The notes under the pieces: generated by a model
Databases searched by the model: none
Told to the model about the DNA's origin: nothing
Seen by the model: only the letters and a program-made list of their open reading frames with translations
Translations under genes and position numbers: made by a program
UHGV virus genome: UHGV-0136485
Source: a virus
DNA: 12,555 nt
Strand: one strand, 5' to 3'
Part shown: positions 6,428 to 8,789 of the stretch, in pieces
Position numbering within the stretch: position 1 is the stretch's first letter
Layout: each line of letters begins with the position of its first letter

Positions 6428-6458
6428 TTTTTTTGCAAATCACAAAGTCAATTTAATG

Positions 6459-6485
6459 AGCCTCGCGAAAAGCGGGGCTTTTTTA
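6459..6485 (+). terminator. Rho-independent terminator downstream of the lysis cassette
   Basis: Stem AGCCTCGC (6459-6466) / GCGGGGCT (6472-6479) with one U-G pair, GAAAA loop, then TTTTTT. Confidence 0.65.
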
Positions 6486-6627
6486 TGTCCGCAGTAAACG
6501 CGCATCTCACGCGCATATTAACGAGAGCCTTTCAGTAAGCGAGCCTGAGAAATGCCGTTATAGGTGGCGACCTCTCTCGGGCGGCTTTTCTGTGAGACAG
6601 GCTCACTTTCTAAAAGGTAAAGACGCT

Positions 6628-7125
6628 ATGAAAGCAATCACGCTTTTTAATACACCGATCCGTGTTGATGAATCAGGAATGATCTGCCTCACTGATATGT
6701 GGAAAGCCAGTGGTAAAAGTGAATCTGAATCTCCGTACCACTACCTGCGAAACAAGCAGACCAAAGAGTTCTTAGCCGAGCTGGAGAAAAACCACGAATC
6801 TGTGGTTTTTACTGAGCGCGGTGTACACGGTGGAACATATGGCGGGAAGTTTGTTGCTTACGATTATGCGGCTTGGTTAAACCCCGGGTTCAAGTACGCG
6901 GCCTATAAAGTCCTCGATGACTACTTCACCGGAGAACTTCAGCATCGCAACAGCTTAAGTGCGCAGCTCAACATGAAATGTCATGAGTTTGACCAGAAGA
7001 AAGACATGGCGAGCTTCTGCGGACAAGGGCTGGCAGCATGGCGCTATACGAAGCCAGTGTTGGTCGCTGAGATTAACTCCCTGGCTAACCAGCTGCAGAT
7101 TACGATCCCCGGGCTTCCGGGATGA
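6628..7125 (+). CDS. KilA-N (APSES-type) domain DNA-binding protein, 165 aa
   Basis: N-terminus ITLFNTPIRVDESGMICLTDMWKASGKS...YLRNKQTKEFLAELEK resembles KilA-N/Bro-N-type phage DNA-binding domains. This is pattern recognition, not a search result. ATG 6628 is preferred over the GTG at 6592, which has no RBS. Confidence 0.6.
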   Translation: MKAITLFNTPIRVDESGMICLTDMWKASGKSESESPYHYLRNKQTKEFLAELEKNHESVVFTERGVHGGTYGGKFVAYDYAAWLNPGFKYAAYKVLDDYFTGELQHRNSLSAQLNMKCHEFDQKKDMASFCGQGLAAWRYTKPVLVAEINSLANQLQITIPGLPG

Positions 7126-7379
7126 GTGATCGTGTTATTGAATGCGCCTCCAGAGCGGGGCGCGACTTCTCAGAGTTCATGAAAGGCGAGAAGGGCATGA
7201 TGGAAGCATTGGCCTCGGTGGATGAGTTTGGCGAGCAGCTGCGCCTCAACGGCTGTGTCAATCATCACTTTGTTAGCTACATGATGCGTAACTCGATCAT
7301 GCAGGCATTCATGGACATGGCAAAAGCCGAGAGGAAAGAAGAGCGCCGGCGTAAGCGAGCGGAAGCAAAAGCGAAGTAG
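7122..7379 (+). CDS. Hypothetical 85-aa protein with a basic C-terminal tail, coupled to the KilA-N gene
   Basis: ATGA overlap with the upstream stop. C-terminus AKAERKEERRRKRAEAKAK is highly charged. No motif recognised. Confidence 0.55.
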   Translation: MSDRVIECASRAGRDFSEFMKGEKGMMEALASVDEFGEQLRLNGCVNHHFVSYMMRNSIMQAFMDMAKAERKEERRRKRAEAKAK

Positions 7380-7735
7380 CCATTACAAAGCCCATCTACT
7401 GGTGGGCTTGATAATGAAACCGTGATTTACATCCCTCACAATCCAGGTATGTAAAAGCTGGATCATGCGAGAACGGATTTAACTAAATCTGTGCGCCACC
7501 AGTTAACGGCAGTACAGCGAAACAACCCAAGCCAGTAAGTGGGGAAATAACACTGGCAGCCACTGAAAGATGAACCTCCTGCCTTATGGCAAAAAAGATT
7601 CTTTGTGGTGGCGGACTGATGGAAAGACATCGGTTATTGCAGAGGCCATTCAATGAGTGGTCTCGACAATGGCTTATACCCTACACGGGATAACTTAACT
7701 GATATCCCTTTTAACGGATAAACGGAGCACAAATA

Positions 7736-8233
7736 ATGGCAAAGCTCACCGACAAACAAGAGCTGTTTGCCCATCCGGATGATGTGTATGTCGGAGAGTG
7801 TGTGATTTATACCGGCTACATAAATAAGCGAGGGTATGGGCAGAAGCACATTTCACGAAAGCCGCACTACGCACATCGAATCGCATACTGCGAAGCTAAC
7901 GGAATTTCGCTAGATAGCATCAAGGGCCTGGTTGTTAGGCATAAATGCGATAATCCATCATGCGTGAATCCTGACCATCTGATTATAGGTACTGTCGCTG
8001 ACAATAATCGTGACAGGTCAAGGCGAGGCAGAAACTCATACCCTGACCGTTCAGGTGAAAAGAACGGAATGGCGAAATTAAAAGAGTGCGATGTCATCTG
8101 CATTCGCCTCGAGTATGTGCGCGGGAGTGTAGGTAATGGGCTTAGGTCTTTAGCAAAGAGATATGGCGTATCCACTACCATGATTGCTGACATCGTTAAT
8201 CATAGAAATTGGAGCAATGTTTCGGAGGTGTGA
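7736..8233 (+). CDS. HNH endonuclease (HNH_3-type) with a C-terminal helix-turn-helix-like region
   Basis: Motifs HYAHRIAY...VVRHKCDNPSCVNPDHLIIGTVADNNRD are typical of phage HNH nucleases. GGAG lies 9 nt upstream of the ATG. Sits immediately upstream of the terminase genes. Confidence 0.85.
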   Translation: MAKLTDKQELFAHPDDVYVGECVIYTGYINKRGYGQKHISRKPHYAHRIAYCEANGISLDSIKGLVVRHKCDNPSCVNPDHLIIGTVADNNRDRSRRGRNSYPDRSGEKNGMAKLKECDVICIRLEYVRGSVGNGLRSLAKRYGVSTTMIADIVNHRNWSNVSEV

Positions 8234-8234
8234 T

Positions 8235-8789
8235 TTGAAACAGCTCACACCTAAGCAGGAACTGTTCTGCAGGGAATATTTAAAAGATTTAAACGCCACT
8301 CAGGCAGCTATCAGGGCGGGCTACAGCGAGAAAACTGCTCGCGCCACTGGTAGCGAGAACCTGTCAAAACCTGACATAGCAGATCGCATTGCTGAGCTAA
8401 AGGCTGAACGCAATGAAGAGGTAGGTATAGACGCTGCCTATGTATTGCGACGGCTGACTGAAATCGATCAGATGGACGTGCTGGATATCCTGCTTGCCAA
8501 TGGCGAACTGAAGCCGATTAAAGACTGGCCTAAGGTGTGGCGTACAACGCTATCAGGAATGGATGTCGTCGAGATGGCATCAGCAGATAGTGCTGCTCTC
8601 CTGAAGAAAATCAAATGGCCTGATAAGGTTAAAAACCTTGAGTTGCTCGGGCGTCATGTTTCTGTTCAGGCGTTTAAAGACAACGTCAAAAATGAAGTGA
8701 CTGGTGCTGACGGAGGACCAGTCAGAACAGAAATTACCAACTTAACGCCGGAGCAGGCTGCAGAGGCGTATAGAAAAATGATGGGCTAA
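8235..8789 (+). CDS. Terminase small subunit (Terminase_2-like)
   Basis: N-terminus [48 protein letters not shown] fits the terminase small-subunit DNA-binding domain. Start is uncertain: TTG 8235 has a GGAGG 6 nt upstream; in-frame ATGs at 8217 and 8184 would overlap the HNH gene by 17 or 50 nt. Confidence 0.8.

Follow-up and report, generated by a model that had tools for sequence, protein, structure and literature searches.

The small protein HkbL is encoded directly downstream of a gene of the Bro/KilA-N network in every context examined, namely in about 20 independent contexts and without exception. What the present analysis adds is mainly this link of HkbL to the Bro network, together with a definition of the boundaries of the cassette in which hkbL is carried. 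The cassette was analysed in the window, a stretch of 12,555 nucleotides of viral DNA, where it would consist, in order, of a terminator, a leader of ~140 nt, hkbK, the translationally coupled hkbL and a structured 3' stem-loop. Taken by itself, the pair is an ordinary accessory module, long annotated as hkbK–hkbL; it has to be regarded as already catalogued, since positions 6459-7741 of the window show 98% DNA identity to coliphage HK620 and the pair occurs widely, its two genes moving together among phages of enterobacteria. The novelty that an earlier, sequence-only reading had implied for the two genes is thus lost, and what is novel lies in the association of HkbL with the network and in the boundaries.

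The window spans early and late genes of the right-hand part of a lambdoid phage or prophage. Its genes run from a DnaB-type helicase through ninB and other nin genes, NinG, a phosphatase, Q, holin, endolysin and Rz to the hkbK and hkbL homologues, which are followed by an HNH endonuclease gene, the small and large terminase subunits, portal and a MuF-like gene. The left half is nearest to HK446, HK544, HK106 and mEp234 (96-98% identity), with matches that stop at about 7741. The sequence-only reading had described a bounded, accessory-looking two-gene unit at the lysis/packaging junction, with an ATGA overlap between its genes, a terminator upstream, and a hairpin and a 356-bp non-coding spacer downstream, and this architecture is confirmed in each of its parts. 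The features concerned are as follows.

6458..6486, + strand: intrinsic terminator just after Rz, from a terminator scan; 5' boundary of the cassette
6487..6627, + strand: conserved cassette leader, ~140 nt, with GCGCA-N6-GCGCA at 6500-6515 and AAAGG before the ATG
6628..7125, + strand: hkbK homologue, 165 aa, ATG start; KilA-N and ORF11CD3 domains
7108..7121, + strand: CCCGG-GCTT-CCGGG hairpin, a GC-only 5-bp stem abutting the hkbL start codon, read from the sequence
7122..7379, + strand: hkbL homologue, 85 aa; three-helix protein with a basic C-terminal tail
7381..7416, + strand: 3' boundary stem-loop, type A; the MFE fold has 14 bp, split over two helices
7492..7631, no strand assigned: optional conserved block of 140 nt, present or absent among related loci at 96-99% identity; no Rfam match
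7634..7672, + strand: diverged second stem-loop copy, type B, from local alignment with hairpin A and compensatory differences
7673..7735, + strand: conserved leader before the first gene of the packaging module, nearly invariant in six aligned sequences, HK620 and HK446
7736..8233, + strand: HNH homing-endonuclease gene, outside the cassette; Pfam HNH_3 and a PADLOC homing-endonuclease model

HkbK is made of a predicted DNA-binding domain of the KilA-N type (APSES fold) and an ORF11CD3 helical hairpin. Residues 7-101 match KilA-N (PF04383) at 58.5 bits against a gathering cut-off of 23.8, in agreement with the KilA-N-like N-terminus proposed earlier. The C-terminal half, previously left unassigned, can now be assigned: residues 109-161 match ORF11CD3 (PF10549) at 50.5 bits against a cut-off of 25, with the full 54-position profile covered. 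In the AF2 model (pLDDT 84), an alpha/beta N-domain precedes two long antiparallel helices, and the APSES-like alpha/beta DNA-binding fold expected of KilA-N proteins is found in HkbK. Among the aligned homologues, differing KilA-N versions are joined to a near-identical ORF11CD3 domain at 'FTGELQ', and the family is, to judge from this alignment, mosaic at the level of domains. Matches of HkbK to PHROG 'anti-repressor' families are weak (E 3e-4 to 6e-4), and no ANT, AntA or P22_AR domain was found in it by Pfam. A literature search on ORF11CD3 returned a methods mention only.

HkbL matches PHROG 875 over its full length (positions 1-85 of 85, E 3.2e-54), while neither Pfam nor NCBIfam holds a family for it; NCBIfam holds none for HkbK either. 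A profile search found only 21 representative clusters among 1.84 billion proteins, and the named sources of the homologues are all Enterobacterales; by these matches, HkbL is a narrow Enterobacterales family. It models confidently (AF2, pLDDT 94) as a three-helix bundle, with predicted helices at 3-20, 26-42 and 48-84, the last of which runs into the basic tail. A small second protein with a basic tail had been noted before, and residues 67-85 indeed have a pI of 11. Fold searches with the model returned generic helical bundles only. Across 41 homologues, 17 residues are invariant and cluster in 'ECASRAGRDFSEF..GEK' and 'GCVNHHF'. A zinc site formed by C8, C45, H48 and H49 was considered and rejected, C8 and C45 being lost in distant homologues.

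Regarding known functions, neither protein had a match below E 0.28 in PDB sequence searches, neither matched a known toxin or antitoxin family in Pfam, NCBIfam or PADLOC, and no nuclease domain was found in HkbK or HkbL in Pfam, PHROGs or NCBIfam. Homology of the pair to terminase, portal, HNH-packaging, holin, endolysin or spanin proteins was sought in Pfam, PHROGs, NCBIfam and PDB and none was found. With fold searches added, no characterised late or packaging protein was matched, a result with which the accessory interpretation of the sequence-only reading stands; as a whole, that interpretation is partly supported.

At 7122-7125, the ATG of hkbL overlaps the TGA of hkbK in an ATGA, and the RefSeq starts in HK620 and in E. 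coli HZDC01 are the same for both genes. Start/stop overlaps of 4 nt or similar are usual in this phage (2256/2259, 3296/3299, 4142/4145); since such overlaps are the rule across the genome, the ATGA alone is weak evidence and nothing special. The hairpin at 7108-7121 is consistent with translational coupling of hkbL to hkbK, and because of it ribosomes may have to complete hkbK before hkbL can be translated. Purifying selection acts on both genes, with a pN/pS of 0.08 for hkbK (33 alleles). For hkbL, a value from 80 viral loci was circular because these loci had been picked for identical protein, and it was replaced by one recomputed on independent homologues, giving 0.07-0.4 against nine of them.

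The adjacency of hkbL to network genes is strict. In every context examined, hkbL starts -8 to +2 nt from the stop of the upstream partner, and hkbK is present in all 80 viral contigs that encode an identical HkbL. Homologues with 60-75% identity still follow a Bro-network gene, at three kinds of site: where the lysis genes meet those for terminase, among the tail genes, between those for tail tube and tape measure, and in the ant (immI) operon that precedes the gene for the tailspike. Four partner architectures can be found.

KilA-N–ORF11CD3: window, HK620, L100, L101, L107-L110
KilA-N–P63C: HK446, HK022, L091-L093, L102, L105
Rha: L096
Rha–ANT: L099

A common C-terminal docking segment in these partners was looked for and not seen, their C-termini (PGLPG, KLLYAAA, HGSEVA, GIGGVAA) being different. 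The association runs in one direction. Distant KilA-N–ORF11CD3 proteins (D3 Orf11, ST104 Orf45 and that of ST64B) match hkbK, yet their records are absent from the 57 with an HkbL match, and many KilA-N–ORF11CD3 proteins appear to have no HkbL partner; because D3 Orf11 and ST104 Orf45 apparently do without it, HkbL is not generally required by this architecture.

HkbL-like domains can also be found in fused form. Two distant ones make up the N-terminus of T5orf172/MUG113 proteins (hhalign probability 95-96%); the gene for one of them lies after the lysis genes and before terS, in the same slot as the pair here, and that for the other adjoins a KilA-N–P63C gene. From its association with Bro-network genes and the T5orf172 fusions, HkbL would appear to be a module, as yet without a name, of the domain-shuffling Bro/KilA-N/T5orf172 network. 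A broader proposal, which we regard as tentative and as possible rather than probable, is that HkbL represents an unrecognised domain family of the Bro/KilA-N/Rha/T5orf172 network, serving as a dedicated small subunit (a restrainer or targeting factor) for otherwise unrelated antirepressor-like proteins, and that terminator, leader, Bro-network gene and hkbL form a discrete mobile cassette in which the leader would hold down a potentially harmful DNA-binding protein.

Several irregular copies of hkbL were encountered. In the 123-aa protein P0001 (NCBI), an ORF11CD3 end is joined to a full HkbL in a single protein, probably because the ATGA junction carries an indel or the start was called wrongly. 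The hkbL frame is intact or nearly so, and unannotated, in HK446 (L086, 2151-2405) and in HK022 (L104, 2501-2707). The HkbL of HK97, HK97p61, has 77 aa, diverges from the family after about residue 54 and looks like a frameshift. Actinobacillus phage vB_Apl-pPE4 (L103, 2007-2566) encodes an HkbK with 100% protein identity to that of the window, followed by the first 22 hkbL codons only, which is unexpected for a Pasteurellaceae phage and suggests either a very recent transfer or a mislabelled or contaminated record.

The unit is mobile, and its upstream boundary can be placed at the terminator. The stem at 6458-6480 has 9 bp, 6 of them G-C pairs, and is followed by TTTTTTAT; it is kept, with a variable loop, in HK620, HK446 and the tail-region copies. 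In a comparison that covered the contexts with KilA-N partners, terminator and leader were homologous before KilA-N genes at the lysis junction as well as in the tail-gene region, with ORF11CD3 and with P63C partners alike, and it is because of this homology at different insertion sites that the mobile unit is taken to begin at the terminator. The leader folds better than shuffled sequences (z = -3.1). In all of its variants, the GCGCA element lies at a fixed distance after the terminator with a spacing of GCGCA-N5-7-GCGCA, and one variant reads TGCGTA…ACGCAT, a compensatory change that keeps the pairing or palindrome. The element at 6500-6515 is a candidate operator, HkbK binding site or RNA hairpin. 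A long leader hairpin sequestering the Shine-Dalgarno showed compensatory changes in 10 of its 39 pairs in a 6-sequence alignment and was not recovered with 11 more diverse sequences. No sigma-70-like promoter was detected on the + strand of 6480-6628 by a crude consensus scan, which could miss a non-canonical, weak or activator-dependent promoter, and no IHF consensus site was seen by eye in the leader.

Downstream of hkbL, the 356-bp spacer (7380-7735) is modular and strongly structured (+ strand fold z = -5.6 against shuffles). It holds no + strand ORF of at least 40 aa, no tRNA and no Rfam family; across the whole window, a tRNA search found none and Rfam at E <= 1 gave a chance snoRNA match only. 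Minus-strand ORFs of the spacer were not credited, as they cross the boundaries of conserved blocks. The hairpin at 7381-7416 has no U tract and was not called by the terminator scan. It belongs to a family of ~40-nt stem-loops with three sequence types (in the window, L076, L006, L028 and others), one of which stands at the end of every small cassette located between hkbL and the packaging module; in other genomes, extra small genes can be found between stem-loop copies. Among 17 distinct copies, 97.5% of cells are paired and both-side changes occur in 5 of 14 pairs, a covariation that is supportive and not conclusive because the structure was derived from one of the sequences and the copies are related. 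Hairpins A and B of the window align locally with a score of 30 (shuffles 13.4 +/- 2.7). Possible roles for the stem-loops are transcript processing or stabilisation, or that of recombination boundaries. Between the two copies, the 140-nt block may be a small RNA or the remnant of one; it contains a terminator-like hairpin on the minus strand (7596-7575). A coding role for a 27-codon ORF at 7570-7653 is argued against by A-run indels in two variants. The leader before the packaging module holds GGGATA-N10-TATCCC and then TTTT, and is kept whichever gene follows, be it the HNH gene as here or hkbM (DUF2560) as in HK620.

Within 7736-8271, the HNH gene itself has the appearance of a homing-endonuclease gene that was inserted into terS at its 5' end. 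It is absent from the relatives L075 and L029, where the conserved leader runs straight into terS. Positions 7743-7772 and 8242-8271 (~30 nt) align to the same bases of L075 and L029, and the N-terminus of the gene product, MAKLTDKQELF, resembles Ter protein sequence. In phage Dewey (L087), a different HNH endonuclease gene (1711-2262) lies just upstream of hkbK, where it replaces most of the cassette leader and leaves the last ~35 nt.

With regard to occurrence, a chromosomal E. coli prophage is 99.6-100% identical to the cassette stretch, and cassette DNA is present in 525 of 5426 complete E. coli genomes (~10%); a query that includes both cassette flanks matches 2739 genomes (~50%), with the flanks pooled. 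The match to mEp213 goes no further than the end of Rz. There are 57 phage records that encode HkbL, among them Stx-converting phages, HK022, HK97, mEp phages and Klebsiella phages. A scan of genome contigs for such loci returned 5.

As far as sequence can tell, the pair is most likely a late-transcribed, non-essential regulator or antirepressor-like two-protein module. The fuller reading is that of an accessory cassette, complete in itself and moving horizontally, which belongs to the phage Bro/KilA-N ('antirepressor-like') network, sits in a Q-dependent late operon and encodes a regulator/antirepressor-type pair; it is preferred here with a confidence that falls somewhat short of even. Polymerase modified by Q (antiterminated late transcription) would read through the terminator, and the pair would be made late in lytic growth and not in the lysogen. 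Late expression is favoured over prophage expression because no sigma-70-like promoter was detected and the pair, in all contexts found, has the orientation of the late (or ant) operon that contains it. HkbK would bind DNA via its KilA-N domain and may oligomerise or dock via the ORF11CD3 hairpin, while HkbL, made in step with HkbK and in a fixed ratio to it, would act with HkbK or on it. The two proteins might form a complex that acts on DNA or on some other DNA-binding protein, with a regulator/antirepressor-type activity that would modulate the expression of phage or co-resident prophage genes, and the pair would be dispensable for virion production.

A terminator placed before the genes fits equally well a unit insulated from upstream transcription, which would suit prophage-expressed defence or superinfection exclusion, where the DNA of an incoming phage would be sensed or bound by the KilA-N protein, leading to abortive infection in the manner of BstA, with HkbL as a modulator. 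HkbK matches the PADLOC candidate PDC-S22 (E 7e-9), and the cassette is present in only ~10% of E. coli genomes, against ~50% for its flanks. However, the best stretch of the PDC-S22 match is confined to aa 60-90, inside the KilA-N domain, the 165-aa HkbK ends in ORF11CD3 and not in a BstA C-terminal domain, HkbL matches no PADLOC defence model (QatB at E 0.02 only), no promoter was detected in the sigma-70-like scan, and the pair is always co-oriented in late or ant operons and not beside the repressor, which is where bstA lies; a defence role is considered unlikely. Production of HkbL always right after its partner could also be explained if the Bro-network protein, when unchecked, were harmful to the cell or to phage growth and HkbL bound and restrained it, as an antidote does a poison. 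The lethality of P1 KilA, which shares 30% identity with HkbK aa 11-127, points this way, as do the tight coupling of HkbL with four partner architectures, the conserved and structured leader, which suggests that expression is held down, and the block that Rha imposes on the growth of phage in hosts deficient in IHF (PMC4936722). Against it, HkbL is apparently missing beside some related KilA-N–ORF11CD3 proteins, no toxin or antitoxin family was matched in Pfam or NCBIfam, and the HkbL-like domains fused to T5orf172 look like working modules and not like antidotes, which leaves this explanation improbable as well.

The cassette might instead be selfish, related to homing elements and persisting by spread between phage genomes with little benefit to the phage. 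Such a reading would draw on the presence of the terminator-leader-gene unit at unrelated sites, the HNH endonuclease genes inserted beside the cassette here and in Dewey, the boundary hairpins that recur between neighbouring small cassettes, and the fusion of HkbL-like domains to T5orf172, a domain whose proteins are treated as nuclease-related in papers on ICP1 and PLE. It is quite improbable, given that neither protein has a nuclease domain and that both are under strong purifying selection, which speaks for a role of the proteins as such. The same low likelihood attaches to the idea that hkbK and hkbL are mere neighbours with unrelated functions, brought together by modular recombination. 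Overlapping starts and stops are common throughout the genome and many alternative inserts are found at the junction, a hotspot of recombination, but chance neighbourhood is hard to reconcile with an HkbL that, at 60-75% identity, follows a Bro-network gene in ~20 independent contexts without exception.

The regulator/antirepressor-type reading bears on a wider group of genes. Bro, KilA-N and Rha proteins are among the commonest uncharacterised genes of temperate phages and prophages, and most of them are without known biochemical function; Shiga-toxin phages are among the carriers of the present pair. A single small family coupled to four network architectures, and found in T5orf172 fusions, would offer an experimental handle as a common partner, with HK620 (host E. 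coli H), which can be grown on laboratory strains of E. coli, as a practical starting system. If it is true that HkbL restrains or directs Bro-network proteins, this would help to explain the tolerance of such genes in late operons.

Among known systems, HK620 is the closest. Its hkbK and hkbL (NP_112071 and NP_112072), named 'KilA-N domain-containing protein' and 'hypothetical protein' in RefSeq, share with the window the gene order, the ATGA overlap, the upstream leader and the downstream spacer. It differs by hkbM (DUF2560) downstream, where the window has the HNH endonuclease gene, and by ~170 bp extra between Rz and the terminator. Searching the literature for the names hkbK and hkbL gave unrelated papers only, with nothing on function. 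Pseudomonas phage D3 Orf11, which appears to have given the ORF11CD3 domain its name, has the same KilA-N and ORF11CD3 domains and aligns with HkbK over aa 10-160, although with 27% identity only and from a different genomic position, and its record is not among the HkbL matches.

Compared with phage morons, which by the account of Hendrix and Juhala reportedly combine a patchy presence, an own promoter, a factor-independent terminator downstream and a deviant base composition, the cassette shares the first trait: it is patchy at this junction (525 versus 2739 E. coli genomes, with the mEp213 match ending at Rz). No sigma-70-like site was found on the + strand of 6480-6628 by the crude scan, the hairpin at 7381-7416 is without a U tract and the true terminator lies upstream of the genes, and GC content is 0.47-0.55 in the cassette against 0.45-0.53 in the flanks.

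Other KilA-N proteins are more distant. P1 KilA, the founding member, is lethal when expressed, and its gene is part of the kilA-repL lytic-replicon operon; beyond the 30% identity over aa 11-127 of HkbK, its C-terminal region differs and P1 records are not among the HkbL matches. BstA is about twice as long as HkbK and is expressed from the prophage, where its gene adjoins that for the repressor; the system has this one gene only, to which a DNA element, anti-BstA, is cognate. The KilA-N domain is the sole feature that it has in common with HkbK, which lacks the combination of a KilA-N-like N-domain with a BstA C-terminal domain that marks the family. BstA itself has two domains, with a C-terminal region of its own (PMC8585504). 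With T5orf172/MUG113 proteins (e.g., ICP1 Odn and PLE CapR), the likeness is to HkbL, distant relatives of which form the N-terminus of some of them, whereas the HkbL of the window stands alone with 85 aa and no nuclease-like domain. T5orf172 is GIY-YIG-like and a classical partner domain of the Bro network.

By analogy, the nearest studied precedent would be Rha of P22 and phi80. The rha gene of P22 lies in the same slot as the cassette here, between the lysis genes and the small terminase gene (gene 3). P22 has no record among all 57 with an HkbL match, and the N-terminal domain of Rha is Phage_pRha where that of HkbK is KilA-N. Like HkbK, Rha is the product of a Bro-network gene of the late operon, and Rha-type genes are found elsewhere as alternative upstream partners of HkbL. 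P22 rha (orf201) belongs to the late operon, and its product is detrimental to lytic growth where the host is deficient in IHF; Rha of P22 and phi80 is itself subject to regulation (PMC4936722).
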